IMG/VR virus record: IMGVR_UViG_2534682108_000015
Span: 1 to 17,603 of that record
Reading direction: 5' to 3' (one strand)
From: a virus
Taxonomy: Duplodnaviria; Heunggongvirae; Uroviricota; Caudoviricetes
DNA: 17,603 bases
Part shown: piece after piece, positions 1,237 to 17,603 of the stretch
Layout of the letters: each line of letters opens with the position of its first letter
Numbering within the stretch: position 1 is the stretch's first letter
Made by a program: the position numbers and the translations under genes
Notes under the pieces: model-generated
Told to the model about the DNA's origin: nothing
The model's input: the letters and a program-made list of their open reading frames with translations, nothing else
Databases searched by the model: none

Positions 1237-1394
1237 CCAGAGCGTAATCATATCTGCCAGTCCGCTGCGGATACCTTGTGTACTGGGTTTTTAGCCAGAC
1301 TACGTTAACCGGTAGCTTCAGTATTTGGGGTGTCGGCAGGAGTTTGATGGTTTATTGGGTTACTGTGGGACTAAGGATGTAGGGATGCCAATCG

Positions 1395-2528: not shown

Positions 2529-2737
2529 TATTTCGCCTGATGCCAACTCAAAATCTTTTTTGTCGCATCCATTGTGGATTAATATTCAGAGGTAAGGGGT
2601 ATCTGCGGAATTTATATTTTGCAGGATGAGTATACAATACATGATATAACATCTGTTTTTGGCACAGAGCATATAGTCAGATTATGTTTAGTTCTGTGCC
2701 ATAGATGGATATTATCTCACCTCTTGGCTAACTCTCA

Positions 2738-2932
2738 TTACTCAATAACTCCAGTAAATCTGTATATTTTGCGTGATGCCCATTTATTTGGGCAGGATTT
2801 AATATCAGGATCTGGAAAATCTGGCCTGTATTTCTGGCCTGTCCTCCTGTTTACGCTGTTCCAGCGAAGCACCGTCGATATTGAAACGCCACAGAATTCG
2901 GCGACTTGTTTTGTTGTCATTAAGTTGCTCAT
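2738..2932 (-). CDS. AlpA-family HTH DNA-binding protein, excisionase-like (putative Xis)
   Basis: 64-aa ORF with the HTH segment TTKQVAEFCGVSISTVLRW followed by an FPDP...KW-type wing. Strong SD (GGAGG) 8-9 nt upstream of the ATG at 2930-2932. Preferred over the overlapping plus-strand ORF 2619-2984. Confidence 0.5.
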   Translation of the reverse strand: MSNLMTTKQVAEFCGVSISTVLRWNSVNRRTGQKYRPDFPDPDIKSCPNKWASRKIYRFTGVIE

Positions 2933-2966
2933 TGCTACCCCTCCAGCGGTTGTTCAGTTGAAAGAC

Positions 2967-3503
2967 TCATGCGCATGTGCGTAACTCCGATAACTCGTTA
3001 AAGCGTTCCATAAACATCCCGTAGGCATGGCCTGGCGACAGTGGAATAACTTTGAACATCTCTGTGGCAGAGATGCCTTCCAGTACTGGCCAGAAAGAGC
3101 CATCATCAAGCCCGAGATCGCGGCGTTCGGTTGCCAGCATGATGAGATCGGCATATTTCACGGGTGTACTCATAACCGGGGGTAACCCGTATTTCTCACG
3201 GATTACGGCGTCTATTTTTTCTTCCATCCGTTTATAGTCAGGAAGAAGGCGTTTCAGTGGTGCGGGAATGTCCTGGCAATACGCTTCTGTTGCATCATGC
3301 ATTAACGCTTCAAAAGCAAATTCCTGCGGCACCAGCTGGCTGCAAAGCACCGCATGCTGGGCGACACTGTAGAAGTGTGAAAGATGTCCTGCAAAGCGAC
3401 AGATATTTGAAAGGGAAACCGCGATATCGTTAATCACGATGTCGTCTTTATTTATCTTGTCATAATAAAAATGCTTCCCGGAAAAAGTTTTAATAAATGA
3501 CAT
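2967..3503 (-). CDS. yfdR: HD-domain phosphohydrolase (5'-deoxynucleotidase-like), YfdR-like, 178 aa
   Basis: HD-domain signature (H...H...LMHDATEAY...D). The internal ATG at 3501-3503 has a GGAG SD 7 nt upstream and gives 178 aa; the ORF-track 199-aa version lacks an RBS. Symbol assigned from the 120/274/178-aa size and order match to the CPS-53 yfdP-yfdQ-yfdR block as recalled, not from an alignment. Confidence 0.65.
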   Translation of the reverse strand: MSFIKTFSGKHFYYDKINKDDIVINDIAVSLSNICRFAGHLSHFYSVAQHAVLCSQLVPQEFAFEALMHDATEAYCQDIPAPLKRLLPDYKRMEEKIDAVIREKYGLPPVMSTPVKYADLIMLATERRDLGLDDGSFWPVLEGISATEMFKVIPLSPGHAYGMFMERFNELSELRTCA

Positions 3504-3631
3504 TTCGTTCTCCACTTTATATGCGCTGCACCGCGCTGAATTCGGGTAAAAGTAAGCCCTCACCATCCGGCGATTATTGAGTTAATTACGTTTCCATAAA
3601 TGCCCCCGCAGGGGCATTTGCAGTAATGAAA

Positions 3632-4456
3632 TCAGGCGGTGAAAGTACCAATAAAGGTTTCTACTTTGCTGTCTTTGAATTTCTCAACAAGCAGATCACG
3701 AAATTCGTTAGCCATTTCCTCCTGCACTGCTTCCAGCTGAATAATGCGCAGAACCAGTACAGGACGATCGCCAGTGATAATGCTGAGGCGTAATTTAAAC
3801 GGACGTTCTTTCAGGCCTTCAAACGGAACGCATTTAAATTCAAATGCCACTGGCATAATGTCTTTGGTTTTCGCTTCGACAGACTCCATCAGGGAGCGTT
3901 TGCCGCTGAAGTCATTGTCTTCAAAATCAGCGGTCTGGTTTGCTTCAATCGTGATTTTACGGACTGCCGCAGCTGCTTTTGTTGCCTGAATAGCGTCACC
4001 ATTAGCATCAAAGCCCACAAGGTAGTCGGCCCAGTCTTCAATCCATTCTGCCAGTGACTTCTGGGAGTTACGCTCGCCATTAACAGACAACAGAGCAGAG
4101 AACGGTGCTGTCTTTTTCAGTTTGAGAGTGGCGGTGTTATCTGCGTGACCTGGTTCATCAATAGTACCCAGATTAAGCACACTGACGGCACGCATATTAT
4201 CAGCATCGATAAAGCAGCGGGTGCCCTCATCTGCAAGATCTTTAGAATAACGGGTAAAGTCATCGATGCTGGTAGTGGAAAGCGCACCACGGAAACGGAA
4301 GCGATTTAAATTAAATTTTTCCAGATCATGAATGCGGAAGTTCTCAGGCAATGCCACAGCATCGGCACCAATCTTACTGATAATTTCATTAACACTCTGA
4401 GCAGAAATAAGGGCATGGATTTGATTAATTGCGGTTGCGTCTAAGTTCTGAGACAT
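3632..4456 (-). CDS. yfdQ: YfdQ-like phage early protein (DUF2303-type), 274 aa
   Basis: 274-aa ORF with a GAGGA SD 8 nt upstream of the ATG at 4454-4456. Length and position between the YfdP-like and YfdR-like genes match the CPS-53 early block as recalled; not verified by alignment. Confidence 0.6.
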
Positions 4457-4521
4457 AATAAGTCCTCACTATATAAAGATATTCAGTGATGAGATAAATA
4501 ATCAGTTTATTAAAAACGATA

Positions 4522-4884
4522 TTAACGACCAGCTGCGCGGAGTTTTCCGTCAGGTTCACCGGCAAGAGTCAGTAATTGTCCCTGGTCTTCCTGCAGAATA
4601 GTCAGGCGACCACCGCGATTGACATACATCGGCGTTTCGGTGGTGTCTTCTTCGGAAATTTTCCCGCGGTTAGTTGGGCGAACATATGAGAGTTTGTGTT
4701 TGATTTTCACACGGTTCTCATCAAACGGTTCGATTTCCAGATTGAGTGAGACCTTCCCTTTGGTTTTCGTGTTCATCACACCGGAAGCGACTTCACTTAG
4801 AACTGCGCCGATTTTGGTTTCAAATACGCCGCCGTCCAGCTCCCCGATAAATGCCTGCACATCAGTACTGCGGTCACTAGCCAT
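4522..4884 (-). CDS. yfdP: YfdP-like small phage early protein, 120 aa
   Basis: The internal ATG at 4882-4884 is preceded by GAGGAG 7 nt upstream and gives 120 aa. The upstream 77 codons of the ORF-track version (to 5115) are R/C/T/P-rich, overlap a large inverted repeat, and look non-coding. Confidence 0.55.
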   Translation of the reverse strand: MASDRSTDVQAFIGELDGGVFETKIGAVLSEVASGVMNTKTKGKVSLNLEIEPFDENRVKIKHKLSYVRPTNRGKISEEDTTETPMYVNRGGRLTILQEDQGQLLTLAGEPDGKLRAAGR

Positions 4885-4932
4885 TTTGCTGCTCCTCATC
4901 ATATCGACCCTGCAAGGTCGGTTAGTTTCTCC

Positions 4933-5021
4933 ACAAAACAGAGAAGAACACCTGCGGTGGCAGCCGCCCGGATGGATTGGGTTATGAGCCCGTCGTCCGG
5001 TGATGCTCTTCTCTGTTTTGT
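4933..5021. repeat. Perfect 15-bp inverted repeat (ACAAAACAGAGAAGA, 4933-4947, and its reverse complement TCTTCTCTGTTTTGT, 5007-5021) enclosing a 59-nt GC-rich loop; candidate RNA stem-loop in the leader of the leftward early operon
   Basis: Verified base by base. A boxA-like CGCTCTTTTTA lies immediately 5' on the minus strand (complement of 5021-5031). Confidence 0.5.
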
Positions 5022-5534
5022 AAAAAGAGCGGTACCAGCCGGAAGCAAGTGTACAAACTGGTACCTCCAAAGCAGTGGCTGTTGTGGTGGGGTTGTCACT
5101 CAGGCGTATGGTCAACCTGACAATCCGGTGTCCTCAACGGGGAAAGAGTAACCCCGCCATACTTACCGCCGCGCCATTTCGCGGATTACCACAACGCTGA
5201 GAGCACTTAGCCAGTTACGGCACCACACTTTGTCGCGGCTCCATAAATGCCCTCATCGTTGCACCCTGGTCTCTTCCCAGGCGTCAAACCGAATCGCCAC
5301 GCTGGTTAGGCGTCTTATCAGCATCATCATTGACTTGCACATTCCGGCTACCTGGTTTGTTTGCCCGAGCAAGGAGTGGATTGTCCCCTTTAACGTCCCC
5401 AGACCGCTAACGACGCATGTGCCATACGCCGTGTTACAACCAAATTTTGTTAGTACCTTGTTTGTTGGTCTGGAAAGAAAGATAAAATGAAGTTGCGCAT
5501 TATGCAAGTGTTTTATTGCGAGATGTGCAATTTA

Positions 5535-5555
5535 ATAGGTAATGAAAAGCCACCT
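5535..5555 (-). terminator. Intrinsic terminator downstream of the cI-like gene
   Basis: On the minus strand, GCCACC-CGAA-GGTGGC (6-bp GC stem, tetraloop) followed by TTTTC, about 30 nt after the cI stop. Confidence 0.55.
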
Positions 5556-5585
5556 TCGGGTGGCTAATTGATGAGGAGGTAAGGG

Positions 5586-6278
5586 TTAATTGTGTCGCTT
5601 AAGGGTTTGTGACTGGCTGATTAAGACCTTTCCAAAGACCATAAACCGGTGTTCATTTTCGCTGGTAATTCCCCATTCACGGTAAATCTGGTTATCAGAA
5701 ATCACCAGTAGTTTGTCAGGTATCATTTGCAGTCGTTTGACATAAATTTTATCATCAAAACCAAATACATAGATACCATCTCCATCAAACTGATTGATAC
5801 TGACATCAACGAAGATGAGATCTCCTGGCTCAATGGTTGGACACATACTGTCCCCACGAACGTTGATAACTTTAATGTGATTGGCTGGTCGTCCGCCAAA
5901 CATCGATACAGCATTATCAGTTCTGTATTCAATGGCATGAATCACATCAATGACATCACCGCCCTGGATAAGGCCATTTCCCGCACTGGCACTGACATCC
6001 AGCATTTCAATACGGAATACATCCTTCACCTGCGCAACATCCTCACTAATACTGTTTTTACATACAGTATTACTTTTGACGTCTGAGGTAAAGAGATCAG
6101 CAATATCAACACCTAAGCTCCTGGCAATATTACTCAGGGCTTGTTCAGTGAATTGTTTCTGCTTACCTGTTTCCAGGCGCGAGATATTCGCCGCATCCAC
6201 TCCTATTGCTTCAGCTAGATCGGCGATTTTCATGTTCTTCGCCTGGCGAAGTTGTCTGACTCGATTTCCTATGTTCAT
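5586..6278 (-). CDS. cI: CI-type prophage repressor (N-terminal XRE HTH plus C-terminal S24 LexA-like autopeptidase domain)
   Basis: 230 aa. HTH: MKIADLAEAIGVDAANISRLETGKQ. Peptidase motifs GDSM (Ser) and KR (Lys) are in the C-terminal half. Divergent from the cro-like gene. Confidence 0.9.
   Translation of the reverse strand: MNIGNRVRQLRQAKNMKIADLAEAIGVDAANISRLETGKQKQFTEQALSNIARSLGVDIADLFTSDVKSNTVCKNSISEDVAQVKDVFRIEMLDVSASAGNGLIQGGDVIDVIHAIEYRTDNAVSMFGGRPANHIKVINVRGDSMCPTIEPGDLIFVDVSINQFDGDGIYVFGFDDKIYVKRLQMIPDKLLVISDNQIYREWGITSENEHRFMVFGKVLISQSQTLKRHN
6050..6069. promoter_or_regulatory. Consensus-grade LexA (SOS) box TACTGT-N8-ACAGTA inside the cI coding sequence
   Basis: Plus strand TACTGTTTTTACATACAGTA; all 12 outer positions match the E. 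coli SOS-box consensus. It lies in the linker-coding region (codons about 70-76) of the repressor gene. Confidence 0.5.
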
Positions 6279-6375
6279 GCGTTTATTACATTTCTTTATT
6301 GCGCGTTAATCAAATCAACTTGCGCAAAATATTTGCGTGAAATAATATGATCATCACGCAATATGTGGAGGTTAT
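6279..6375. promoter_or_regulatory. cI-cro intergenic control region: divergent PRM/PR-like promoters with repeated TTGCGC-type operator half-sites
   Basis: TTGCGCG (6299), the palindrome TTGCGCAA (6320-6327) and the inverted pair TTGCGTGA (6334-6341) / TCACGCAA (6353-6360). Candidate PR: -35 TTGCGC (6320-6325), 17-nt spacer, -10 TAATAT (6343-6348). cro SD GTGGAGG at 6365-6371. Confidence 0.6.
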
Positions 6376-6636
6376 ATGCAATCACCATTACGGAATGTGC
6401 GTAAGGCGCACGGATTTACTTTGCAGCATGTTGCTGCTGGCGTTCAGGTCAATCCAGCGACGCTGAGTCGTATTGAAAGACTGGAACAAATTCCATCTAT
6501 CGATCTTGCAGAACGTCTGGCCAATTTTTTTAAGGGTGAAATCAGCGAAATGCAGATTCTTTATCCGGCACGTTTTCAATCTAGCCAAAACCAGAATGGG
6601 TTTAAACCACAGGAACAGGAGGTAAGCCGTGGGTAA
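6376..6636 (+). CDS. cro: Cro-like HTH regulator
   Basis: 86 aa with an XRE-type HTH (FTLQHVAAGVQVNPATLSRIER), divergent from cI, good SD. Its stop overlaps the next gene. Confidence 0.75.
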   Translation: MQSPLRNVRKAHGFTLQHVAAGVQVNPATLSRIERLEQIPSIDLAERLANFFKGEISEMQILYPARFQSSQNQNGFKPQEQEVSRG

Positions 6637-7180
6637 TCATCACTGGAAAGTGGAAAAACAGCCTGAGTGGTACGTGAAAGCTGTCAGAAAAACCATCGCG
6701 GCGTTGCCAGGGGGTTACGCTGAAGCTGCTGAGTGGCTGGATGTTACAGAGAACGCTTTATTCAACCGCCTTCGTGCAGATGGCGATCAGATTTTCCCGC
6801 TGGGATGGGCAATGATTTTACAGCGTGCTGCTGGCACTCACTACATTGCGGATGCTGTCGCACAGTCTGCTGGTGGGGTGTTTGTATCGCTTCCTGAAAT
6901 TGAGGAAGTAGAGAACGCAGATATAAACCAGCGCCTGCTGGAAGTCATCGAACAGATCGGGAGTTACTCAAAGCAGATTCGTTCGGCAATCGAAGATGGG
7001 GTAGTGGAGCCACACGAGCAGACAGCAATTAATGATGAATTGTATCTGTCAATTTCGAAGCTCCAGGAGCATGCGGCACTGGTCTACAAAATTTTCTGCG
7101 CTCCAGAAAAGAGTGACGCCCGCGAGTGTGCAGCTCCGGGCGTCGTGGCGTTTTGTGTCTGTGGAGAAACTAACGCATGA
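6629..7180 (+). CDS. CII-like phage regulatory protein (CP76-type)
   Basis: 183 aa, GTG start at 6629 preceded by AGGAGG (about 6616-6621). Positioned immediately after cro. Family assignment by resemblance to phage CII/CP76-type regulators; not verified. Confidence 0.65.
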   Translation: MGNHHWKVEKQPEWYVKAVRKTIAALPGGYAEAAEWLDVTENALFNRLRADGDQIFPLGWAMILQRAAGTHYIADAVAQSAGGVFVSLPEIEEVENADINQRLLEVIEQIGSYSKQIRSAIEDGVVEPHEQTAINDELYLSISKLQEHAALVYKIFCAPEKSDARECAAPGVVAFCVCGETNA

Positions 7181-7505
7181 ACAGTTTAACGGCAAATAAC
7201 CGTTTGTCGCAACAGCTGGTGGTCAGTGTCGCTGCACACCTGTTGTTACGGCATGAATGCAGATTACCAAATCACCTGGCTGTAAGTAACCACAGAGAAC
7301 TTTACCTGACTGTGGGGGGCGAGTTGTGCAGGAACTTAACCGCTGGTTTCGTGACGGAAGAGGACTTTATGTTCATGTTATTCGTTGGGAGCCAGAAACA
7401 CAGCGCGTTATCTATCTTCGCAAAGACTACCCGCATGAGTGCTTTAGTCCTTTATGGAAATTCAGGCGTGATTTTGTTGAGTGTGAAGGACCACCAGCAC
7501 ATTGA
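7177..7505 (+). CDS. Possible small gene of about 108 aa, readable only if a frameshift occurs at a G6 tract (7314-7319); as sequenced, the frame beginning at ATG 7177 instead runs on to 8328
   Basis: ATG 7177 overlaps the CII-like stop (ATGA). After the G6 run, a different frame encodes a protein-like 59-aa segment (VQELNRWFRDGRGLYVHVIRWEPETQRVIYLRKDYPHECFSPLWKFRRDFVECEGPPAH) ending at TGA 7503-7505. The interval is not a multiple of 3 as sequenced. Confidence 0.3.
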
Positions 7506-7590
7506 TTCTGCCATTCCGGGACGTTACACTGTTCAGGCACCTTATAAAGCGGGTGCCGGGCGTGGAAACCCGGAATTCACCAAAGCGCAC

Positions 7591-7613
7591 AACCGCGCTC
7601 TTGCGGTTTTTTT
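7591..7613 (+). terminator. Intrinsic terminator-like hairpin with T-tract (tR-like) between the small ORF and rha
   Basis: AACCGC-GCTCTT-GCGGTT stem-loop followed by TTTTT (7609-7613). The loop contains the boxA-like CGCTCTT. Confidence 0.4.
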
Positions 7614-7782
7614 GTGTCATGAGCAGCATTACGCCCAAATTATGGTGGGGCGTGCAGGGCCAACTTCGGTTGGGCCGGGTTCTTTGGTGACCGGTATTTC
7701 CACCCCTGTACGTCTCACCACCAATAAGGTCGTGGAAAGCCTTGGTGGTGAGTTATTAAAAATCACCAAAGAGGCTGCCATC

Positions 7783-8328
7783 ATGGCTACGATCCCAACC
7801 CTCACTCAACCTGAAATTGCCATCGTTGATGGTCAGGCTGTTACTTCATCCCTGGCTGTTGCCAACTTCTTCTCCAAACGTCATGACGATGTACTGAAAA
7901 AGATCCGCACGCTTGAATGTTCCGCATCATTCACTGCCCGCAATTTTTCGGTGAGTGATTACACCGATTGCACAGGCCGCAAACTACCTTGCTATCAAAT
8001 AACCCGCGACGGCTTTGCGTTTCTTGCTATGGGTTTCACGGGTAAACGTGCTGCCCAGTTCAAAGAGGCATACATCAATGCCTTTAACCAGATGGAGAAA
8101 CAGCTTTCAAAGCCCGCTGTACCGAGCGACGTTGCACATAATGCCAGCGTTCTCTGTTCCTACATTTCATCAATTCATCAGGTCTGGCTGCAGCAGCTTT
8201 ATCCTATGTTGGCAAAAGCCGAATCTCCGCTGGCTGTTAGCTTATATGACTATATTAATGATGCTTCGGCGCTGGCCTGCCTCATAAATTTGTCGCTGAA
8301 CCCTTCAGAGGTAAGGGGGCGCAAATGA
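7783..8328 (+). CDS. Rha-family phage regulatory protein
   Basis: 181 aa from ATG 7783 with SD AAAGAGG 8 nt upstream. N-terminal Rha-type motif (SLAVANFFSKRHDDVLKKIR). The 383-aa ORF-track version is treated as an artefactual N-terminal extension. Confidence 0.8.
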   Translation: MATIPTLTQPEIAIVDGQAVTSSLAVANFFSKRHDDVLKKIRTLECSASFTARNFSVSDYTDCTGRKLPCYQITRDGFAFLAMGFTGKRAAQFKEAYINAFNQMEKQLSKPAVPSDVAHNASVLCSYISSIHQVWLQQLYPMLAKAESPLAVSLYDYINDASALACLINLSLNPSEVRGRK

Positions 8329-8549
8329 TCCGGAATATTTTCAAACGTTTTACCAATCAGACTTTCCGTTGTCCTCGTCCGGGTCAGTGGTACACCACGC
8401 CTGCAGGGCATGTTCTACGTGTTAGCCTGGTTGACCGTGAATGTCAGAAGGTGATTTGTGAACCGCTGGGCCGTAATTACCGCGTCAGTATGCCGCTTAT
8501 AGCCTTTCGCTCCGGAAAAAACATGAAGCATCTCGGAGGTGCAGCATGA
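8325..8549 (+). CDS. Small hypothetical protein (74 aa), translationally coupled on both sides
   Basis: ATGA overlaps with the rha stop (8325-8328) and with the replication-gene start (8546-8549). Contains three Cys and a basic N-terminus. Confidence 0.5.
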   Translation: MIRNIFKRFTNQTFRCPRPGQWYTTPAGHVLRVSLVDRECQKVICEPLGRNYRVSMPLIAFRSGKNMKHLGGAA

Positions 8550-9364
8550 GTATGGAGCTGATGGTTAAAGCGATGAAAATTCGAGTGGGTAATCCATTGC
8601 GAAAACTGGTTCTGATCAAGCTGGCTGATAATGCCAGCGATCAGGGTGAGTGCTGGCCCAGCTACCAGCATATTGCTGACCAGTGCGAGATTAGCAAACG
8701 TTCTGTGATGAATCATATTGCGGCCCTTTGTGAGTCCGGGCTGGTAAAAAAAGTCACCCGGAAAGGTGAAAAAGGTAACTCAAGTAATATCTATCTCCTT
8801 CATCTTGATGGTGCAGGAGATTCACTAGGGGGTAGTGCAAATAATTCACTATCTGGTGCAGCAAATTCACTAGGTAGTGCAGGAGTTGCACCAGGGGGTA
8901 GTGCAGGAGATTCACCCAGAACCAGTCACTCTTTTGAACCAGTCAAAGAATCAGTCAATGAACCAATAGCTGTTGGTGCATCAGTTGATGAGTCCGTGCG
9001 AGTTCGTTCAAACCGACCGGAATACTCTCCGGAGTTTGAGCAGGCATGGCTGGCCTATCCCAAACGTGCTGGTGGCAATTCAAAATCTGCAGCCTTCAAA
9101 GCTTGGAAAGCCCGTTTGAATGAGGGGGTAAAACCCGAAACCATGCTGGAAGGTGTGAAACGCTACGCGGGCTGGGTATCTGCGATGGGTAACAGCGGCA
9201 CACAATTTGTGAAACAGGCTGTCACGTTCTTTGGTCCGGATCGTCATTTCGAAGAATCCTGGGAAGTTCCTGCGGTATCTGCAGCCAGACGCGAGGACCC
9301 GTACTTCAAAGCCAGTTACGACAACGTGGACTACAGCCAGATCCCGGCAGGATTCAGGGGGTGA
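8546..9364 (+). CDS. Replication initiator / replisome organiser (N-terminal HTH, Gly/Ser-rich linker, DnaT-like C-terminal domain)
   Basis: 272 aa with GGAGG SD. Iteron-like DNA repeats are embedded in the linker-coding region, as in ori-lambda within gene O. The C-terminal region (YPKRAGGNSKSAAFKAWKARL...) is typical of phage DnaT-like replication proteins. Confidence 0.8.
   Translation: MSMELMVKAMKIRVGNPLRKLVLIKLADNASDQGECWPSYQHIADQCEISKRSVMNHIAALCESGLVKKVTRKGEKGNSSNIYLLHLDGAGDSLGGSANNSLSGAANSLGSAGVAPGGSAGDSPRTSHSFEPVKESVNEPIAVGASVDESVRVRSNRPEYSPEFEQAWLAYPKRAGGNSKSAAFKAWKARLNEGVKPETMLEGVKRYAGWVSAMGNSGTQFVKQAVTFFGPDRHFEESWEVPAVSAARREDPYFKASYDNVDYSQIPAGFRG
8811..8917. repeat. Putative origin iterons: 20-24-bp-spaced repeats with internal dyad symmetry (CACTA...TAGTG) inside the replication gene
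   Basis: GTGCA recurs at 8812, 8836, 8856, 8877 and 8901; TTCACTA at 8821, 8845 and 8866. CAGTCA triplet repeats (8923, 8941, 8953) follow. Confidence 0.6.
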
Positions 9365-9366
9365 TT

Positions 9367-9855
9367 ATGAGTCTTTTGAATGAAGTTCAGAAATTCATTG
9401 AAGCCCATCCGGGGTGTACTTCCGGAGACATTGCGGATGCTTTTGCAGATTACTCACGGCAGCGCGTTCTGCAGTCAGCAAGCAAGTTACGTCAGAGTGG
9501 GAGTGTGGCTCACCGTTGTGAAGGAGATACACGCAGACATTTCCCGCGCCTGACTGAGAGAGCGCAGGGGCCGGAACCACAACCAGTTCGTGAAACCAGA
9601 TCTGTGCGCAATTTCTATGTCGGCACTAACGATCCACGGGTGATTTTGTGCCTGACCCGCCAGGCTGAAGAACTGGAGTCCAGGGGCTTATACCGTCGTG
9701 CTGCAACGGTGTGGATGGCGGCATTCCGAGAAAGCCACTCCCAGCCAGAACGAAACAATTTTCTGGCTCGTCGTGAGCAGTGCTTACGGAAAAGCAGCAA
9801 GCGTGCTGCATCGGGTGAAGAGTGGTATCTGTCAGGGAATTACGTGGGGGCTTAA
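9367..9855 (+). CDS. PerC/Pch-like transcriptional regulator with an N-terminal winged-helix-like extension
   Basis: C-terminal segment AEELESRGLYRRAATVWMAAF...RREQCL resembles the PerC family. Start taken at ATG 9367 (GGGGG SD); the ORF track begins at GTG 9361. Confidence 0.5.
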   Translation: MSLLNEVQKFIEAHPGCTSGDIADAFADYSRQRVLQSASKLRQSGSVAHRCEGDTRRHFPRLTERAQGPEPQPVRETRSVRNFYVGTNDPRVILCLTRQAEELESRGLYRRAATVWMAAFRESHSQPERNNFLARREQCLRKSSKRAASGEEWYLSGNYVGA

Positions 9856-10181
9856 TGACGACGTTAACTCAATGCCAGCAGCAGGTGCTGGATATGCTGA
9901 TTTCTTATCAGAAAGAACGTGGTTTCCCGCCAACCAATCAGGAGGTGGCAACCATGCTGGGATACCGTTCGGTGAATGCAGCGGTGGAGCATCTTCGCGC
10001 ACTGGAGAAAAAAGGCGTCATCACGATAAAGCGTGGCGTGGCCCGGGGTATCACGCTTCATACCACAGTGAAGGATGACGACAGTGAGGCAGCCGGGATT
10101 ATCCGCGCACTGCTTGCCGGTGAGGAAAACGCCAGACTGCGTGCAGTCCACTGGTTACATAAGAGGGGCCTGAAAGTATGA
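9855..10181 (+). CDS. LexA N-terminal DNA-binding-domain protein lacking the S24 peptidase domain
   Basis: 108 aa from ATG 9855 (TAATG overlap with the upstream stop). MTTLTQCQQQVLDMLISYQKERGFPPTNQEVATMLGYRSVNAAVEHLRALEKKGVI aligns by eye with the LexA winged-HTH; there is no Ser/Lys peptidase region. Confidence 0.75.
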   Translation: MTTLTQCQQQVLDMLISYQKERGFPPTNQEVATMLGYRSVNAAVEHLRALEKKGVITIKRGVARGITLHTTVKDDDSEAAGIIRALLAGEENARLRAVHWLHKRGLKV

Positions 10182-10567
10182 AGCTGATCCTGCCTTTTCC
10201 GCCCAGCGTGAACACGTACTGGCGACACCCCAACAAAGGGGCGTTTGCTGGTAAGAGCCTGATAAGCGCGGCGGGGCGAAAATTCCAGAGCGCGGCGTGT
10301 GCAGCAATAGTTGAGCAGTTACGTCGTCTGCCAAAACCAACGTCGGCACCTGCTTCAGTGGAGATCGTGTTGTTTCCTCCGGATAACCGGATCCGCGATC
10401 TGGACAACTATAACAAGGCGCTGTTTGACGCCCTGACCCACGCGGGGGTGTGGGAAGACGACAGTCAGGTGAAAAGAATGCTGGTGGAGTGGGGACCGGT
10501 TATCCCGGAAGGGAAGGTCGAGATCACTATCAGTAAGTACGAGAAAACGGCGGGTGCAGCCGCCTGA
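10178..10567 (+). CDS. rusA: Holliday-junction resolvase RusA
   Basis: 129 aa with the RusA hallmark (LPFPPSVNTYWRH ... RDLDNYNKALFDALT ... DDSQV). ATGA coupling to the upstream gene and SD AAGAGGGG. Confidence 0.9.
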   Translation: MKLILPFPPSVNTYWRHPNKGAFAGKSLISAAGRKFQSAACAAIVEQLRRLPKPTSAPASVEIVLFPPDNRIRDLDNYNKALFDALTHAGVWEDDSQVKRMLVEWGPVIPEGKVEITISKYEKTAGAAA

Positions 10568-10586
10568 TTAAGAGGAGAAACGAAGT

Positions 10587-11429
10587 ATGAATAATCTGAT
10601 GGTCATTGATGGTATTGAAGTTCGTCGTGATGCTTATGGGCGTTACAGCCTGAACGATCTGCATCGCGCAGCAGTAGCATCTGGTGCAAATGCCAGAACC
10701 AAGGAGCCGGGAAAGTTTCTTTCCAGCCAACAGATTACTGAGCTGGTTCAGGAATTGATCGATACCCAAAATCTGGGTGTCGGTTCATTCAATGAAACTA
10801 CCCAAAATTTGGGTAGTAAACCTGTCAGTAAAATAGAAGGGCGGAATGGCGGAACATATGTCTGTAAGGACCTGGTGTATGCCTATGCAATGTGGATCAG
10901 CCCGTCATTCCATCTGAAGGTGATCCGCACTTTCGACATGGTAACCAGCGCACCGGAAAAATTATCCTGGCAGGCTGCTGACAAGATGCAGGCTGGCGTG
11001 ATTCTGCTGGACTTTATGCGCCGGGAGTTAAATCTGTCTAACTCATCAGTGCTTGGTGCCTGTCAGAAACTCCAGGAGGCTGTTGGCTTACCGAATCTGG
11101 CACCGCGCTATGCCATTGATGCTCCTGCTGACGCGCCTGATGGCTCAAGCCGCCCCACGCTGTCACTGAGTGCATTGCTGAAGCAGTATGGTATCCGCCT
11201 GACAGCTAATCAGGCATATCACCAGATGGTGAAGCTGGGGATCGTCGAGCAGCGCGAACGATACAGCCGTACCGCGATTAACAACATCAAAAAATTCTGG
11301 TCACTGACAGCGAAAGGCTGCATGTTCGGCAAGAACATCACCAGTCCCGCAAATCCGCGCGAGACGCAGCCGCATTTCTTCGAATCCCGATTCCCTGAGC
11401 TGTTAAAGCTGCTCGATACCGTTCATTGA
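10587..11429 (+). CDS. KilA-N domain protein (antirepressor-like)
   Basis: 280 aa. N-terminal KilA-N-type region (DGIEVRRDAYGRYSLNDLHRAA ... YVCKDLVYAYAMWISPSFHLKVI). SD AGAGGAG. Confidence 0.8.
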   Translation: MNNLMVIDGIEVRRDAYGRYSLNDLHRAAVASGANARTKEPGKFLSSQQITELVQELIDTQNLGVGSFNETTQNLGSKPVSKIEGRNGGTYVCKDLVYAYAMWISPSFHLKVIRTFDMVTSAPEKLSWQAADKMQAGVILLDFMRRELNLSNSSVLGACQKLQEAVGLPNLAPRYAIDAPADAPDGSSRPTLSLSALLKQYGIRLTANQAYHQMVKLGIVEQRERYSRTAINNIKKFWSLTAKGCMFGKNITSPANPRETQPHFFESRFPELLKLLDTVH

Positions 11430-11430
11430 G

Positions 11431-12426
11431 GTGACCGTGAGAGCACTACTGACCCCTGAAATTGCCCCGCGTATGGGGATCGTATTGTTCAGGCCAGGTT
11501 CAGAGCTGATGCCCCTGTTTATGCAGGGGCGTGTCCTGCTGGAGCCTGAGCCGGAACGTTATTCATCTTTCGCCAGTGGTGCTGTTCCGGCGGCATCACA
11601 ACCGCTGGCGGATGATCCTGCCGTTCGGGCCGTGTTCCGCAATGAGGCAGTGATCCGTCGTGCTGGTGGCGTGGAATGTCTTGAAAGCTGGTTACTTCGT
11701 GAAAAAGGCTGCCAGTGGCCTCATTCCGACTGGCACAGCGAGAACATGACCACAATGCGTCACGCGCCGGGCGCAATCCGTCTGTGCTGGCACTGCGATA
11801 ACCAGCTGCGCGATCAGTTCACGGAACGGCTGGAATCAATGGCAACGGATAACTGTGCCCGCTGGGTGTTGTCTGTCGTGCGTCGGGATCTCGGTTTTGA
11901 TGACAGTCACGTTGTGACAATGCCGGAACTGTGCTGGTGGCTGGTTCGTAATGATCTGGCGGATGCCTTACCTGAAAGTGCAGCCCGTAAGGCACTGAGA
12001 TTACCGAAGCCTGTTGTGCCGTCTGTCACCCGGGAGAGTGACCTTGTTCCTTCGGTTCCGGCCACCAGCATCATCCAGAATAAAGCGAAAAAGGTGCTGG
12101 CGCTGAAAGTGGATCCGGAGTCGCCGGAGTCTTTTATGTTACGCCCAAAACGTCGCCGCTGGGTTAATGAAAAGTACACGTGCTGGGTTAAGACACAGCC
12201 GTGTGCATGTTGTGGAAAGCCCGCTGATGATCCCCACCACCTGATAGGTCACGGTCAGGGTGGAATGGGAACAAAAGCGCATGACCTTTTTGTGTTGCCT
12301 TTGTGCAGAAAGCATCACGACGAGCTGCATGCGGATACCGTGGCATTTGAAGAGATGTATGGCTCCCAGCTGGAGCTGATATTTCGTTTTATCGATCGTG
12401 CGTTGGCAATTGGTGTGCTGGCCTGA
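11431..12426 (+). CDS. DUF968-family protein with a C-terminal HNH-like Cys/His motif
   Basis: 331 aa. C-terminus CACCGKPADDPHHLIGHGQGG...CRKHHDELH. GTG start as in the ORF track; alternative in-frame starts exist. Confidence 0.7.
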   Translation: MTVRALLTPEIAPRMGIVLFRPGSELMPLFMQGRVLLEPEPERYSSFASGAVPAASQPLADDPAVRAVFRNEAVIRRAGGVECLESWLLREKGCQWPHSDWHSENMTTMRHAPGAIRLCWHCDNQLRDQFTERLESMATDNCARWVLSVVRRDLGFDDSHVVTMPELCWWLVRNDLADALPESAARKALRLPKPVVPSVTRESDLVPSVPATSIIQNKAKKVLALKVDPESPESFMLRPKRRRWVNEKYTCWVKTQPCACCGKPADDPHHLIGHGQGGMGTKAHDLFVLPLCRKHHDELHADTVAFEEMYGSQLELIFRFIDRALAIGVLA

Positions 12427-12443
12427 TTTTGTGGAGAAGGTTG

Positions 12444-12806
12444 ATGCGTGATATTCAGATGGTTCTTGAGCGTTGGGGGGCATGGGCGGCGAGTGATAGT
12501 TCTGGGGTAGACTATTCGCCTATAGCTGCTGGGTTTAAAGGGCTTCTTCCCTATACAAGCAAAACACGTCAGGCTTGTTCAGATAGTGATGCATTAATTA
12601 TTGAAGGTTGTCTTGCTCGTCTAAAGCAAAAAAGACCTGAAGAACACTCGCTTCTTGTTGCCCATTACCTATACGGTATCTCTAAAAGAAAGCTCGCTAA
12701 AGCTCGCAAAAAGGATGAGAAAATAATACGCATTGAGATACAGATGGCTGAGGGATTTATAGAAGGTTGTCTAGCTATTCTAAATGTTAGCTTAGATATG
12801 GATTAA
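12444..12806 (+). CDS. Q: Late-gene antiterminator Q (QuuD / phage-21-82 type)
   Basis: 120 aa from ATG 12444 (SD GGAGAAGG). The N-terminus MRDIQMVLERWGAWAA...AAGFKGLLP is characteristic of the small Q family. Confidence 0.8.
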   Translation: MRDIQMVLERWGAWAASDSSGVDYSPIAAGFKGLLPYTSKTRQACSDSDALIIEGCLARLKQKRPEEHSLLVAHYLYGISKRKLAKARKKDEKIIRIEIQMAEGFIEGCLAILNVSLDMD

Positions 12807-12849
12807 TATCTTGGTTTGGGTAAGCAGGTGTGCTTGCACCTGCTTAATA

Positions 12850-13302
12850 TTATATGTGGGGTAATATCCAGTTTATTTTCCGCCAGGTACTTGCAAATGA
12901 AACTATTGATACGATCAGGGTCGAGAAACCATATAAGGTTAGGGCGAAATCAAGTCTTACAGAGGTAATGGTGATTTTTTCATTTATAAACATTGCTATC
13001 AGCGGGAAAATACATGCTAATATTAAGGTGACTCCCGTAGATAACAGGTTATGAATAATTTTAGGTAAAATCTTGTTTTGTTTTAAAGCAAAAATAATTC
13101 CATCAGTGCTTGAACTTGCAGAACTGAAGATGGAAATAGCGGCCAATACAAAACCAAACAAAATGCCTGCCACCGTAGATAACACTCCGGCTGTACTTAA
13201 GATATCAGAGTGAGCCATAGGCGCTAGGTATTTCCCAAGCACCCAAGCTAACAGCCCACTGATAACTATGTTAATTAAAACTTTAATAAGCATAATCATC
13301 AT
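12850..13302 (-). CDS. Small four-TM membrane protein (RexB-like architecture); second gene of the AT-rich accessory cassette
   Basis: 150 aa with four clear hydrophobic helices (about residues 3-23, 36-60, 88-108, 120-140). AT-rich. Starts 14 nt after the upstream gene's stop, with AAGGA before the start cluster. Confidence 0.6.
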   Translation of the reverse strand: MMIMLIKVLINIVISGLLAWVLGKYLAPMAHSDILSTAGVLSTVAGILFGFVLAAISIFSSASSSTDGIIFALKQNKILPKIIHNLLSTGVTLILACIFPLIAMFINEKITITSVRLDFALTLYGFSTLIVSIVSFASTWRKINWILPHI

Positions 13303-13316
13303 CCTTAAAAATAAGA

Positions 13317-14249
13317 TCAGATTTCATATTGCTTTAAATACTGACCATGTTCAATTTTAGCACTTATCAAGGCAGTACGCACATCTGTTTCTTTTGCGTA
13401 GCCATCTTTTGTGTTAATGTTTTTTTCACTGATCAGAACTTGATTGAGAAGACTCCTTGAATGAGTATTTTTAGGTTCAGTGACATTAGCTTTACGTAAT
13501 AAGTGAGGAACTTTTTCTATTAATTCCTTTATTCCACTTTTTACTTCATCACTGAGATAACCACGGATTAATTTACGTTGCGATGCTCTACCTCTAAGTG
13601 ATAGTTTTAAATGCGAACCGCCCATCCCAGCCATCATTTCAATCATACTTTTGGAAAATGAATTCGAAAGGTCATAATCCGTTGCGCTAAAATCACGTGG
13701 AGCGGCGAGTGTAATTTCACAGCTACGTAAAGTGCTTCCTGTTTCAAGTAGTTCTTTTACACTTTCTTTTTTCCAAATTGCCTCAAACGCTACAGGTTTG
13801 TTTTCTTCAGAAAAATTGAATAAAAGAAATGCTAAATCGGAAGCTTTAGGTCATAAATGATTTTGAGATAAAACAAGAATGTCTTTCTTATAGTAGTAAA
13901 TAAAATAAGTGCGTTCGACTATATATTTTTTATCATCTAACGGAATATTGTGCTCATCCCAATTTTCATCACCAATATAAGGTAAGTGGAAACCATCACG
14001 AGAGCATGATAGATAACCAAAATAGAACTCCGCCTGTGCGTCTTTTTCTAAGAATACAATCTTTAATTTTTTCTTATCAAACTCAGCGGTATAAGAATTT
14101 TGCGAAGGTGTAACAATGGTTGTATACATTTTGTCAAATGCAAGTTGTGCATTTGATGTAGTTGACTTCGTTCCTGAGGAGCTTTGGAAGAAACCGATAC
14201 GCATTTTTTTTTGTTTAGTTAGTGGCGCGGAAGTGGCTGTAGTAGTCAT
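13317..14249 (-). pseudogene. Cytoplasmic protein of about 311 codons split by one in-frame TGA (13851-13853); first gene of the accessory cassette; RexA-like by position and size only
   Basis: ORFs 13851-14249 and 13317-13646 are in the same frame. The 68 codons between the TGA and the next ATG contain no stop and no ATG/GTG/TTG, verified codon by codon. AT-rich. Confidence 0.55.
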
Positions 14250-14548
14250 TAAAATTACCCTTTATTATCCTTTTGAATCAATGGGTTGTGATTTATTAAT
14301 GATCCTGGGTTCGTTGCATATGCATAATCTATCAAAAAAAACTTACGCGGTCCGCATTTTCTCGTTTACTGTGTTAAGAGTGGTTACTTCGCCACACAGC
14401 TTAAACCCGCCGTCGAGCGGTTTTTTTGTACCTGTAAACCTGGTGCAGTACAGTAAACACGCTGGTGGTCGTGAATACTGACTTTTTATCTTGCTGGCTT
14501 TTTAGACAAGAGTTATTGGTATGTCATGTTAACCAGAAGGGAAAAGAC

Positions 14549-14752
14549 ATGCTAAAACAGCAAGATATGACAGAAATCGCCGCCGCAGTCCTTCACTTCT
14601 TACCTGCTGACAAGTGGGTAACGCCACGCATGATGACGAGAACTACCGGAGTAAGCGAAGCCCGGTGCCAGTTAATACTGACTCAGTTAGTTCTGGCGGG
14701 TCTGGCGAAGGATAACGGCGGGTACGGGAATAAATTCAGACGCTGCCAGTAA
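14549..14752 (+). CDS. Small winged-helix DNA-binding protein (67 aa), divergent from the accessory cassette and upstream of the methyltransferase fragment
   Basis: ATG 14549 with SD AAGGGA 6 nt upstream. HTH-like segment TPRMMTRTTGVSEARCQLILTQLVLAGL. Confidence 0.5.
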   Translation: MLKQQDMTEIAAAVLHFLPADKWVTPRMMTRTTGVSEARCQLILTQLVLAGLAKDNGGYGNKFRRCQ

Positions 14753-14902
14753 TGGCGGTTTCCTGCTGTGAAAATGGGCGGCTGGTGGGTGTTGGTAGCA
14801 CCTGCCAGCCATTCGCTCATGCTTACTGGTCACAAGCGAACCACGGCCCACTGCTTTAGCGCAAAAGCAGAGTGAGCCTACCAGAGTTACGCTTACTGAT
14901 CC

Positions 14903-15310
14903 ATGAAAAATACTGTAAAAATAAACAGTGTTGATTTAATCAACGCTGATTGCCTGCATTTTATTCAGTCCCTGCCTGATGATTCCATTGACCTGATAGT
15001 TACCGATCCGCCGTACTTCAAAGTGAAGCCCAACGGTTGGGACAATCAGTGGAAAGGGGACGAAGATTACCTGAAGTGGCTGGACCAGTGTCTGGCTCAG
15101 TTCTGGCGGGTGCTGAAACCTGCCGGAAGTCTTTACCTGTTCTGTGGACATCGCCTGGCATCTGATATTGAAATCGTGATGCGTAAACGTTTTAATGTGC
15201 TGAACCATATCATATGGGCGAAGCCGTTCAGACCTTGGAGCGCATGCTGTTGTTGCTCACTGGTATTACGAACGGTTTGCTCACGGGGATGTACACATAT
15301 TAATTGTTGA
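14903..15310 (+). pseudogene. DNA methyltransferase (N6A/N4C, DPPY type), 5' fragment only
   Basis: N-terminus carries the catalytic DPPY motif (IVTDPPYF) and IIWAKP; the target-recognition and FxGxG (AdoMet) regions are absent. The reading frame degenerates after about residue 115 and runs into AT-rich DNA. Confidence 0.6.
14911..14930. promoter_or_regulatory. Strong LexA (SOS) box-like palindrome at the 5' end of the methyltransferase fragment
   Basis: TACTGTAAAAATAAACAGTG: CTGT-N8-ACAG with an AT-rich spacer and 11 of 12 outer consensus positions. Overlaps codons 3-9 of the ORF. Confidence 0.45.
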
Positions 15311-15318
15311 TGTTAATA

Positions 15319-15660
15319 TTACGTCATGTTATTAATACAAAATTGCAACGCATCATTCAAAGTATTATAATTATCATTTGTTGCATTTATTATGCCAACA
15401 TTCCTTGTTGGTCTTCCTTCCGTTGAATATTCTATCCAGAATGAGCCGGTGTATTTTGACATTCTATATGTTGCGAATTCTTTTGCATTAATTGGTGGTT
15501 TGGTGCCGTTGAGATCCATTATATAACCACTTTCTTGAATTGTCTTAGAAAGGCAATTGATTATTTCATTTGTCGATATTTCACTGTCGATTTGAGGATG
15601 ATTCACAATTAGCCCCATGCAGAGGATGCTTGAAATTATTATAAAAATATTTTTTATCAT
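15319..15660 (-). CDS. Small AT-rich secreted or membrane-anchored protein (113 aa) with an N-terminal signal-like hydrophobic segment
   Basis: MIKNIFIIISSILCMGLIV... followed by a polar N/T/S-rich body. Very AT-rich, with AT-rich 5' flank 15661-15960. Confidence 0.5.
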   Translation of the reverse strand: MIKNIFIIISSILCMGLIVNHPQIDSEISTNEIINCLSKTIQESGYIMDLNGTKPPINAKEFATYRMSKYTGSFWIEYSTEGRPTRNVGIINATNDNYNTLNDALQFCINNMT

Positions 15661-16010
15661 GATGTCTGTTTTTGTGAATTTTTAGATAGAATGTCTGCTG
15701 TGGAAATATGTATACCTCTTGTGCTCATTTATTTCAATAGATAGTTGAGCACTCATTGTGCTAATGGAAGAAGTTTTTTAATATGGAGTATCATCAAAAT
15801 CACACAATAGTGATTAATATTGCTATTAGATAAAGAAGTATCGCTAACTTTGATTTTGTTGAATTTGTTTTTAATAAAAGTTAGTGTGGTTTATATAGCA
15901 GGCATATGCATGCTGTTTTTAAAGAAACTTATTGCCCCTTTAGCCCTAATGGTCAGAGCGAGAGGTTAATAACCGCCAGGTCGCCGGTTCAAACATGGCA
16001 GGGGCACGAA

Positions 16011-16087
16011 GCGCTGTTAGCTCAGTTGGACAGAGCAATTGCCTTCTAAGCAATCGGTCACTGGTTCGAATCCAGTATGGCGCACCA
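16011..16087 (+). tRNA. tRNA-Arg (anticodon UCU)
   Basis: Manual cloverleaf: acceptor GCGCTGT/ATGGCGC, D-arm GCTC/GAGC, anticodon stem ATTGC/GCAAT with loop CTTCTAA, T-arm ACTGG-TTCGAAT-CCAGT, discriminator A, encoded CCA. Confidence 0.9.
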
Positions 16088-16088
16088 T

Positions 16089-16163
<75 letters not shown>

Positions 16164-16636
16164 TAGAGGATTATGGGACAGTATAGTGAGCATTTTTCTG
16201 CGTTACCTTTCATCGGTAAAAATAAGCATACAACAACTATTTATGCTGGCATTAGCTATGATAGTTATTGGTTTTCTCGGAATGTGTTTATTTGTTTACT
16301 ATATTCTTATCGATAACTGATATTTTTGATATTAATCCGGAGTGGTACAAACAAAAATATGAATTCGCTATGGAATCAGGATGTGTAATAAAAATAATAG
16401 TCACTAAGTTATAGTTTTTTTAAAATGTTAAAAACATCACATTTCATTATGTTGGGCACTGGAGAATACCCAGTCGTTTTGTTAAAAATAATTACGCATG
16501 GTGAATCCCCCTAAGCGGAGGGGCAATCAGCAACTGGTGTTTTGTCACCGACCCTTATCCTTTCTGTGCGCAGGTGCTGATACTGAACTCACCGGGAGGC
16601 ACCCGGCACCATGCAAAATTGTCTACACTACCACTG

Positions 16637-16665
16637 TAAAAAGCCCCTCTCCGGAGGGGCTTTTC
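16637..16665. terminator. Bidirectional intrinsic terminator
   Basis: GCCCCTC-TCCG-GAGGGGC (7-bp GC stem) flanked by an A-run (16637-16642) and TTTTC (16661-16665). Confidence 0.6.
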
Positions 16666-16672
16666 TATGGGC

Positions 16673-16700
16673 AAAAAAAAGCCCGCAGTGAGTGGCGGGC
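16673..16700 (-). terminator. Intrinsic terminator for leftward transcripts
   Basis: GCCCGC-AGTGAGTG-GCGGGC preceded on the plus strand by A8 (16673-16680), which is T8 after the hairpin on the minus strand. Confidence 0.55.
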
Positions 16701-16764
16701 GGGTCGCATGAATATACATCAGGTATTTTTATTATCGTGTTCTGATTTCTACCATCTGTGATAA

Positions 16765-16795
16765 GGCTGCGCAACTGCGCGGCCTTTTTCGTTTT
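16765..16795 (+). terminator. Intrinsic terminator-like hairpin upstream of the esterase gene
   Basis: GGCTGCGC-AACT-GCGCGGCC followed by TTTTTCGTTTT. Confidence 0.45.
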
Positions 16796-16883
16796 GCGGG
16801 CTGCGGTTCTCCTCTTTTGATTCTCCGTGTAGCCGGACCGTGGCCCGCAACTGTTGAGGAAAATCCCGGAAAGGGGAGGAATA

Positions 16884-17603
16884 ATGGCATTTAAACACTA
16901 TGACGTGGTCAGGGCGGCGTCGCCGTCAGACCTTGCGGAGCGACTGACACAAAAACTGAAGGAGGGCTGGCAGCCGTTTGGCAGTCCTGTGGCTATCACT
17001 CCTTATACACTGATGCAGGCTATTGCCGCAGAGGGTGATGTGACCACGCCTGTGGTTGTGCCCGACACAGGGGCTGGTGGCTCTCCGGGAGTGGCTATCA
17101 CTGAACCGGAGTATTACTACGTTATTCCCCTGGCCGGGCAGTCGAACGGTATGGCCTATGGTGAGGGGCTTCCTCTGCCGCAGACCTATGATCGCCCTGA
17201 CTCCCGTATTAAGCAGCTGGCCCGTCGCAGCACTGTGACGCCGGGTGGTGATACCTGTGCATACAATGACGTTATTCCGGCAGACCACTGTCTGCATGAT
17301 GTTCAGGACATGAGCGCACTTAACCATCCTCATGCAGACCTGAGTAAGGGCCAGTACGGGACTGTTGGTCAGGGGCTGCATATTGCCAAAAAACTGCTGC
17401 CTTATATCCCGCAGAATGCCGGGATACTTTTGGTGCCCTGTTGCCGTGGCGGGTCTGGTTTAACCGTGGGTAATGACGGCACGTTCAGCGAAACGTCTGG
17501 CGCATCGGCAAATTCAGCCCGCTGGGGAATGGGTAAACCGTTGTATCAGGATTTTCTCTTCCGTACAAAAGCGGCGCTGTCGAAGAACCCGAAAAACAGG
17601 CTT
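16884..17603 (+). CDS. DUF1737 / SASA-domain sialate O-acetylesterase (NanS-p-like), 3'-truncated by the window edge
   Basis: ATG 16884 with strong SD AAGGGGAGGA. Open through base 17603 (240 codons, verified stop-free). Starts MAFKHYDVVRAASPSDLAERL (DUF1737-like) and contains the SASA hallmark LAGQSNGMA. Not in the ORF track because no stop falls within the window. Confidence 0.7.
   Translation, partial: MAFKHYDVVRAASPSDLAERLTQKLKEGWQPFGSPVAITPYTLMQAIAAEGDVTTPVVVPDTGAGGSPGVAITEPEYYYVIPLAGQSNGMAYGEGLPLPQTYDRPDSRIKQLARRSTVTPGGDTCAYNDVIPADHCLHDVQDMSALNHPHADLSKGQYGTVGQGLHIAKKLLPYIPQNAGILLVPCCRGGSGLTVGNDGTFSETSGASANSARWGMGKPLYQDFLFRTKAALSKNPKNRL

Follow-up and report, generated by a model that had tools for sequence, protein, structure and literature searches.

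Positions 1 to 17,603 of the virus record IMGVR_UViG_2534682108_000015 (Caudoviricetes), referred to here as the window, contain a cassette of two genes in a lambdoid (CPS-53/KpLE1-like) prophage. The cassette is an AT-rich accessory unit, forming an island of 35% GC content in DNA of 50-57% GC. Its upstream gene (13317..14249, minus strand) encodes a member of the DUF6731 family that is predicted to adopt a fold like that of RexA from phage lambda, and it is now a pseudogene. The gene directly downstream on the same strand (12850..13293, minus strand), referred to here as the partner, is intact and encodes a protein of 147 amino acids with four predicted transmembrane helices that may resemble lambda RexB. 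The upstream gene (14249..13317) has been knocked out by a real and inherited change of a GGA codon to TGA. It is an ordinary nonsense pseudogene, and there is nothing unusual in the stop codon itself.

Read on the minus strand from the ATG at 14249 to the TGA at 13317-13319, the ancestral gene has 310 codons plus a stop, or 311 in total. The sole internal stop in this frame is a TGA at codon 133 (13851..13853, minus strand), and the next base is a C. The remaining five frames over the same 933 nucleotides contain 17-36 stops each. Two open reading frames (ORFs) are left. The N-terminal remnant (13851..14249, minus strand) specifies 132 amino acids followed by the TGA and is named DUF6731 family protein in RefSeq. 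The C-terminal remnant (13317..13646, minus strand) begins at the internal Met202 and specifies 109 amino acids that are annotated as a hypothetical protein. Between them lie codons 134-201 of the ancestral gene (13647..13850, minus strand), a stretch of 204 nucleotides or 68 codons with no stops and no ATG, GTG or TTG. The first codon of the start type after this stretch is the ATG at 13646.

The initial annotation had called attention to this stretch as very unlikely for non-coding AT-rich DNA, and the coordinates and codon content that it gave are exact on recheck. With the base composition of the cassette, the probability that 68 codons lack stops is 0.0067 and the probability that they lack starts is 0.043, for a joint value of about 2e-4. 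Shuffling the 204 nucleotides gives nearly the same values (0.0068, 0.045 and 2.5e-4, respectively). The absence of starts carries little weight by itself, because start-type codons account for only 9 of the 311 in the frame. The stretch holds 14 residues that are invariant in the family (P134, D138, L143, F155, I158, W159, L167, L168, L174, A182, P184, R185, F187 and Y192). These codons are now untranslated, or are translated only through rare readthrough. There is no Shine-Dalgarno-like motif in the 31 nucleotides upstream of the Met202 ORF (TTATGACCTTTCGAATTCATTTTCCAAAAGT). Since the ATG at codon 202 has no ribosome binding site (RBS), the other 178 codons in all likelihood stay silent.

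Close relatives reveal the ancestral codon. A megablast search with window positions 12700-14500 against 5,426 complete E. coli genomes finds 18 genomes that carry the whole stretch. Only one of these, the 100% identical match NZ_CP062876.1 (serotype O157:H16, from a pig), has an annotation that agrees with the window in having a 132-amino acid 'DUF6731 family protein' and a 109-amino acid 'hypothetical protein'. Seven other genomes were fetched. In these the gene is a single coding sequence of 933 nucleotides, or of 888 nucleotides where a different lesion is present, and codon 133 is GGA in all seven. The remaining 10 of the 18 have BLAST scores and annotation patterns identical to those of the verified intact genomes. 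The GGA codon in the relatives defines the mutation as a G-to-T change at position 13853 (sense strand), converting Gly133 to a stop. It had been suggested that orthologues be checked for a sense codon where the window has its stop, and such a comparison finds glycine there. It also bears out the proposal that the two ORFs are one gene with a premature stop, as relatives that are 99% identical carry GGA and are annotated with a single DUF6731 protein of 310 amino acids.

More distant homologues are also undivided. The Pfam model of DUF6731 (PF20505) covers residues 12-273 of the intact protein and therefore straddles the stop. With a gathering cut-off of 27, the score is 44 bits for the intact allele and 28.5 bits for the 132-amino acid fragment. 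Full-length homologues with identities down to 43-44% are single proteins of 289-423 amino acids (most have 309-319) that cover 90-100% of the query, and the four shorter matches of 179-227 amino acids are fragments. A scan of 1.84 billion cluster representatives yields 189 relatives, most of which are listed with 270-323 amino acids, the others being shorter fragments. Gly133 lies within the most conserved motif of the family, L-[ST]-x-N-H-L-G-P-K (NHLGPK in this protein). It is invariant in sets of 28 and 55 aligned homologues with identities down to 43%, and only small residues (G, A, C, V or S) occupy this position in 187 more distant members.

The mutant allele is rare and is found in many independent sequences. 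The intact protein is encoded on at least 1000 contigs, and disrupted alleles are found on tens of contigs. Counts for the 132-amino acid fragment are 13-28 contigs. An exact match to this product occurs on at least 24 contigs, including at least 10 independent assemblies. Sources of the TGA are eight NCBI assemblies from different projects, with the complete genomes CP062876.1 and CP101800.1 among them, as well as one metagenome assembly from ENA and one SRA assembly from Logan. Over 1481 nucleotides, TGA carriers differ from the window by 0-2 single nucleotide polymorphisms (SNPs) and intact alleles by 10-13. The near identity of the TGA carriers indicates that they share a single inherited haplotype, for which the stop codon is a marker. 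Two SNPs and one insertion or deletion (indel) separate the window from CP062876.1, and the window thus derives from a further sequence.

These results bear on two other explanations that the initial annotation had offered for the TGA. A sequencing or assembly error, with GGA as the true sequence, would account for the single base that sets the window apart from its close relatives. However, the identical TGA occurs in all of the NCBI, ENA and Logan assemblies named above, the window is itself a further sequence, and the change is a substitution located outside any homopolymer. Recurrence in at least ten independent assemblies leads us to reject this explanation, and its probability is negligible. 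Programmed recoding, in which the UGA is read as selenocysteine or in which readthrough occurs at a useful rate, so as to make the complete protein or to set the proportion of short and long products, is hardly more credible. The frame is open for 178 codons past the stop, and a UGA followed by C is the weakest stop signal in E. coli. However, orthologues have a GGA glycine codon at this position and never TGA or a cysteine codon, with glycine present in all 55 close homologues. Near-cognate readthrough would insert tryptophan where the 187 more distant homologues accept only the five residues listed above. An Rfam scan of positions 12500-14700 at an expect value (E) of 1 or less returns no match and no selenocysteine insertion sequence element. 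There is also no hairpin 3' of the UGA, where the predicted fold of about 64-67 nucleotides (minimum free energy -5.2 kcal/mol) is no better than those of shuffled sequences (z = 0.05). The open frame past the UGA is explained by the recent origin of the mutation.

A functional split gene, wherein the N- and C-terminal halves serve as subunits, was also considered. The initial annotation had noted that orthologues ending at the same place, followed by an independent downstream gene with its own RBS and start, would speak against a premature stop. The opposite arrangement is found, with orthologues that are single proteins and a Met202 that is not preceded by an RBS. As 68 conserved codons are lost as well, and as there are no naturally split proteins among the homologues listed or the 189 family representatives, a working split gene is not credible.

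Sequence changes that accompany the stop codon give some indication of its age. Relative to the common intact allele, the TGA haplotype carries K40, A136 and D186. The first two are also found in intact alleles, which leaves N186D as the one further change that, in this comparison of alleles, is seen with the TGA alone. No indels are seen in the dead part of the gene. A single private change and the lack of indels imply that the mutation is recent, which agrees with what had been proposed from the sequence of the window. Two sister TGA carriers have an additional G211C change in the remnant.

Slippage at a homopolymer is a second, independent route to knockout of the DUF6731 gene. A run of nine A residues spans codons 13-16 (14204..14212, minus strand), and a frameshift to A8 has occurred independently at this site in other strains, including strain W137. 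The alleles of 295 amino acids that result exist on two backgrounds, P0006 (N40/V136) and P0007 (K40/A136), which implies repeated slippage of the tract.

Other genes near the cassette are also damaged. The adjoining DNA methyltransferase gene (14903-15247, plus strand) is truncated after approximately codon 107. Its homology to the intact 350-amino acid genes of relatives stops near 15239 and gives way to unrelated sequence, and RefSeq flags the gene as a pseudogene in CP062876.1. In the TGA carrier CP101800.1, the partner gene has a W137C change at an invariant tryptophan, and an IS1 element is present in place of Q. Overall, this looks like a slowly decaying prophage. Ordinary nonsense pseudogenes of decaying prophages likewise have a single-base stop in an accessory gene that is present at low frequency compared to the intact allele. 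The decay of neighboring sequences seen here, represented by the truncated methyltransferase and by IS1 in the sister lineage, is another trait that they share.

The likely identity of the broken gene emerges from structure prediction. The intact protein was modelled with AlphaFold2 (AF2) from an alignment that included 55 homologues, and the mean predicted local distance difference test (pLDDT) score is 83. When this model is compared to the PDB with Foldseek, the top match is lambda RexA (8twq_B; E 5.6e-7, probability 1.0) and the next is E. coli RdgC. The global TM-score to RexA is 0.35, with about 12% identity in the structural alignment. Such a low TM-score is compatible with a two-domain protein whose hinge is flexible, a feature that RexA is described as having (PMC11077077). 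The model begins with approximately seven strands plus helices that form a split globular domain, continues with an inserted unit of four strands plus helices, and ends with a kinked C-terminal helix. This order of secondary structure elements agrees with the published RexA architecture (PMC11077077), and the predicted model thereby contains both the split globular domain and the inserted dimerization domain by which a RexA fold is recognized.

Profile comparisons provide additional, remote similarity. Broad profiles of the DUF6731 family align collinearly with a profile of 28 RexA family members over about 250 columns when compared with hhalign (E 2e-5 with 77% probability, and E 2.8e-4 with 41% probability). 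All hhalign alignments place G133-P134 of this protein on the conserved G109-P110 of RexA. These models and profiles suggest that the undisrupted gene encodes a cytoplasmic sensor of the RexA type that would act as a DNA-binding dimer. According to the model and the domain limits published for RexA (PMC11077077), the 132-amino acid product would not even complete the first of the segments that make up the split globular domain.

The partner ORF begins 23 nucleotides past the stop of the broken gene and is preceded by an RBS with the sequence AAGGA. Hydropathy analysis identifies four hydrophobic spans in the protein, and an AF2 model (pLDDT 81) has four long helices at residues 2-22, 28-59, 75-101 and 114-143. 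The same hydropathy test gives the same pattern for lambda RexB (144 amino acids) and for Sbash gp31 (165 amino acids). By prediction, then, the partner has the form characteristic of the lambda RexB family, whose members are inner-membrane proteins of about 145 amino acids with four transmembrane helices. Its best match among the predicted viral structures of BFVD is an uncharacterized 165-amino acid protein of phage Sbash (probability 1.0, E 0.02, TM-score 0.51). Gene 31 of Sbash (KP027201) encodes 165 amino acids, and this shared length makes gp31 the probable match. Gene 31 has been shown experimentally to encode a RexB-like effector (PMC6426596). Compared to relatives with intact cassettes, the partner gene in the window has three differences, all of which are synonymous.

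The partner occurs directly downstream of the DUF6731 gene, on the same strand, in all 14 of the homologue loci examined. Eleven of these, from E. coli, Klebsiella, Citrobacter and Xenorhabdus, encode homologues with 44-62% identity. The other three are found in the inducible phage cdtI, the Vibrio element PE001, and the Pseudomonas phage AUS531phi. The partner family and the DUF6731 family are present in the same genera, and the largest contigs listed for the two are often equal in size. A genome search with the family alignment returned three species-representative genomes. In the window as in cdtI, the pair lies antisense between Q and the late genes.

Different settings are observed in the two most distant loci. 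In AUS531phi (MN585195.1, 26455-27739), a distant DUF6731 homologue of 298 amino acids with 25% identity directly follows a CI-like repressor gene. Next comes a 118-amino acid gene product with multiple transmembrane helices that shares the LxGF(I/V)xA motif of the partner. All of these genes are on the same strand, and their layout is equivalent to the cI-rexA-rexB arrangement of lambda. The Vibrio element 10N.286.54.F4_PE001 (PQ189356.1, 1389-2896) encodes a homologue of 351 amino acids with 39% identity and a clearly homologous partner of 150 amino acids. Here the pair adjoins the integrase gene of a small tectivirus-like element, which indicates that the cassette moves between very different mobile elements. 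A homologue with 61% identity in the Escherichia phages vB_EcoS-733R5 and vB_EcoS-716R3 is labeled 'portal (connector) protein', an apparent misannotation.

The cassette resembles known Rex systems in several respects. Lambda RexA and RexB (8TWQ; PF15969, PF15968) are also specified by a temperate lambdoid phage and consist of a cytoplasmic protein of about 300 amino acids with a RexA fold (a fold that is predicted in the present case) and a membrane protein of about 145 amino acids with four transmembrane helices, whose gene comes next on the same strand. The GP motif is shared as well, as noted above. In contrast to the lambda genes, which follow cI as part of the PRM operon, the cassette in the window is antisense between Q and the late genes. 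The predicted sensor is about 30 residues longer than RexA and shares about 12% identity with it in the structural alignment, and its gene is dead in this window. The RexA and RexB hidden Markov models (HMMs) match neither of the cassette proteins.

Two other pairs of this type, gp30/gp31 of Sbash and gp44/gp43 of CarolAnn (PMC6426596), likewise combine a sensor with a four-transmembrane effector in a module that is displaced from the repressor. Their likeness to Rex, as with the cassette described here, was recognized mainly from architecture (PMC6426596). They differ in residing in actinobacteriophages (Sbash is a mycobacteriophage and CarolAnn a Gordonia phage), in having a longer sensor of 372 amino acids, and in that Sbash gp31 has no detectable sequence similarity to the partner. 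The RexABpp proteins of Pseudomonas putida prophage P1 (PP_5643/PP_5644; PMC12894663) were similarly annotated as hypothetical proteins. Their genes are near a CI-like repressor gene, unlike the cassette in the window.

Taken together, these features favor a model wherein the locus is a two-gene RexAB-like exclusion cassette whose sensor gene is dead through the inherited G-to-T nonsense change at Gly133, a reading to which we give a probability of roughly 85%. Judging from fold, remote profile homology and gene order, the intact sensor would be a DNA-binding dimer composed of a split globular domain and an inserted dimerization domain, and the 147-amino acid four-helix membrane protein would be an effector like RexB. 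If the pair works as lambda RexAB, Sbash gp30/gp31 and RexABpp do, phage infection would cause the sensor to trigger the membrane protein, membrane integrity would collapse, and the infection would be aborted. In the window, translation should end after 132 of 310 residues. The resulting product would lack the end of the globular domain, the whole dimerization domain and the C-terminal helix, and the exclusion function should consequently be lost in this strain. The effector gene is still intact, but its product would have no activator. The initial annotation had also raised the possibility that a costly gene was inactivated, and this is plausible if the gene encodes a Rex-type sensor for abortive infection.

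Several results weigh against this model. Comparison by hhalign of a narrow DUF6731 profile with lambda RexA or the RexA family is not significant (E 0.078-0.14), and the RexA models PF15969 (Pfam, E <= 0.01) and PDLC02339 (PADLOC, E <= 0.1) do not match the intact protein. The partner is likewise not significantly similar to lambda RexB or Sbash gp31 by BLASTP or hhalign, is not matched by the RexB models PF15968 and PDLC02340, and has a weak fold match (E 0.02, TM-score 0.5). As positive controls, lambda RexA is matched by its Pfam and PADLOC models at 1e-97 and 9e-110, and lambda RexB by its models at 8.5e-92 and 8.6e-61. The Rex assignment thus depends on a fold that is predicted and on profile matches of marginal significance (hhalign probability 41-77%), and a literature search on DUF6731 returned no publication mentioning the family. 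Trace readthrough at the UGA-C is also possible. In other searches, the family alignment had no match among PDB sequences, and PADLOC, NCBIfam and PHROGs supplied no function for the DUF6731 protein. For the two cassette proteins together, neither PADLOC nor NCBIfam returned an informative match; the only NCBIfam line, Lart1, scored 16.6 bits against a cut-off of 500 and was dismissed as noise.

Even if the nonsense mutation is real, the cassette might not be a Rex-type defense. An RdgC/RexA-like fold could serve another DNA-related role, for example in recombination control or modulation of the lysis-lysogeny decision, and the small membrane protein could be unrelated. The presence of RdgC among the fold matches, the lack of Rex HMM matches and the location of the cassette after Q, away from the repressor, would all suit such a role. 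Furthermore, lambda RexA has a function in the CI/Cro switch that is independent of RexB (PMC11077077). However, the gene for the membrane protein is always found directly downstream, whatever the genus and however much the genomic position varies, as would be expected if the two proteins form a unit, and the AUS531phi pair sits exactly at the rexAB position of lambda. In addition, two pairs consisting of a RexA-like protein and a four-transmembrane protein, with sequence similarity that is equally weak, have been shown to be defenses (PMC6426596, PMC12894663). A role of the cassette outside Rex-type defense is therefore the less likely case, but it retains a substantial minority share of the probability.

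Selection, rather than decay, might also have removed the sensor. Its loss could relieve a self-toxic cost while the RexB-like gene persists for a benefit that it provides by itself. Lambda RexB alone inhibits the degradation of lambda O and of antitoxins by ClpXP/ClpAP, and its RexA-independent functions are documented (PMC11077077). Overproduction of the RexABpp sensor is reported to be toxic in P. putida through the effector (PMC12894663). Preservation of the partner with only synonymous changes and the independent A9-to-A8 disruptions on two allele backgrounds also fit this explanation. However, disrupted alleles are rare (tens of contigs versus more than 1000 intact), and the truncated methyltransferase, together with the replacement of Q by IS1 and the W137C change in the partner in one TGA carrier, looks like general prophage decay. 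The substitutions are too few for any selection test. On balance, selected loss seems improbable. More improbable still is the joint proposition that the cassette represents a widespread, unrecognized enterobacterial RexAB-type family in which the TGA allele is maintained rather than decaying, either because the orphan effector is useful or because the UGA-C stop is leaky. In the latter variant, leakiness would hold a toxic sensor at a very low ratio to its effector.

The stop codon alone matters little, as it amounts to a routine pseudogene call, and RefSeq should carry one disrupted gene here instead of two small proteins. The useful by-product of the analysis is the likely identity of the gene, since DUF6731 and its unnamed membrane partner appear to constitute a RexAB-type module. 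Pfam, PADLOC and NCBIfam make no link between DUF6731 and Rex, and assigning the pair to this type, as the predicted structures and profile alignments suggest, would be modestly new. The module is found on more than 1000 E. coli contigs and extends to Klebsiella, Citrobacter, Yersinia, Serratia, Pantoea, Xenorhabdus, Vibrio and Pseudomonas phages. If its Rex-type function is confirmed, a common prophage defense would be added to the catalogue, and natural sensor-null strains such as this one would be ready-made controls for the action of a RexB-like effector alone.

Candidate expression signals are present at both ends of the cassette. The Q antiterminator gene (12441-12806, plus strand) and the partner gene, which ends at 12850, are convergent, and a consensus scan finds a perfect hairpin with an 11-base pair stem between them (12821..12846). 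This hairpin is likely a two-way terminator that closes the cassette. Upstream of the cassette is a weak match to a sigma-70 promoter (14264..14292, minus strand; 9 of 12 positions). Promoter-like matches in the region do not outnumber those in shuffled sequences, and this site is therefore only a candidate. Because promoter-like sites in the scan are no more common than in shuffles, the scan gives no basis for an internal promoter of the partner gene.

Elsewhere in the window, a gene for 377 amino acids with 32-33% GC content (1395-2528, plus strand) is located just past the integrase gene. It has no match in Pfam or PADLOC and may be another accessory (moron) gene. Two phage-borne tRNA genes, tRNA-Arg (anticodon TCT; 16011-16087, plus strand) and tRNA-Gly (anticodon TCC; 16089-16163, plus strand), have the cassette region on one side and the gene for a SASA-family esterase on the other, an arrangement also seen in lambdoid phages of the Shiga toxin (Stx) type. 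The tRNA-Gly reads GGA, the codon that is mutated in the DUF6731 gene, which is probably a coincidence.

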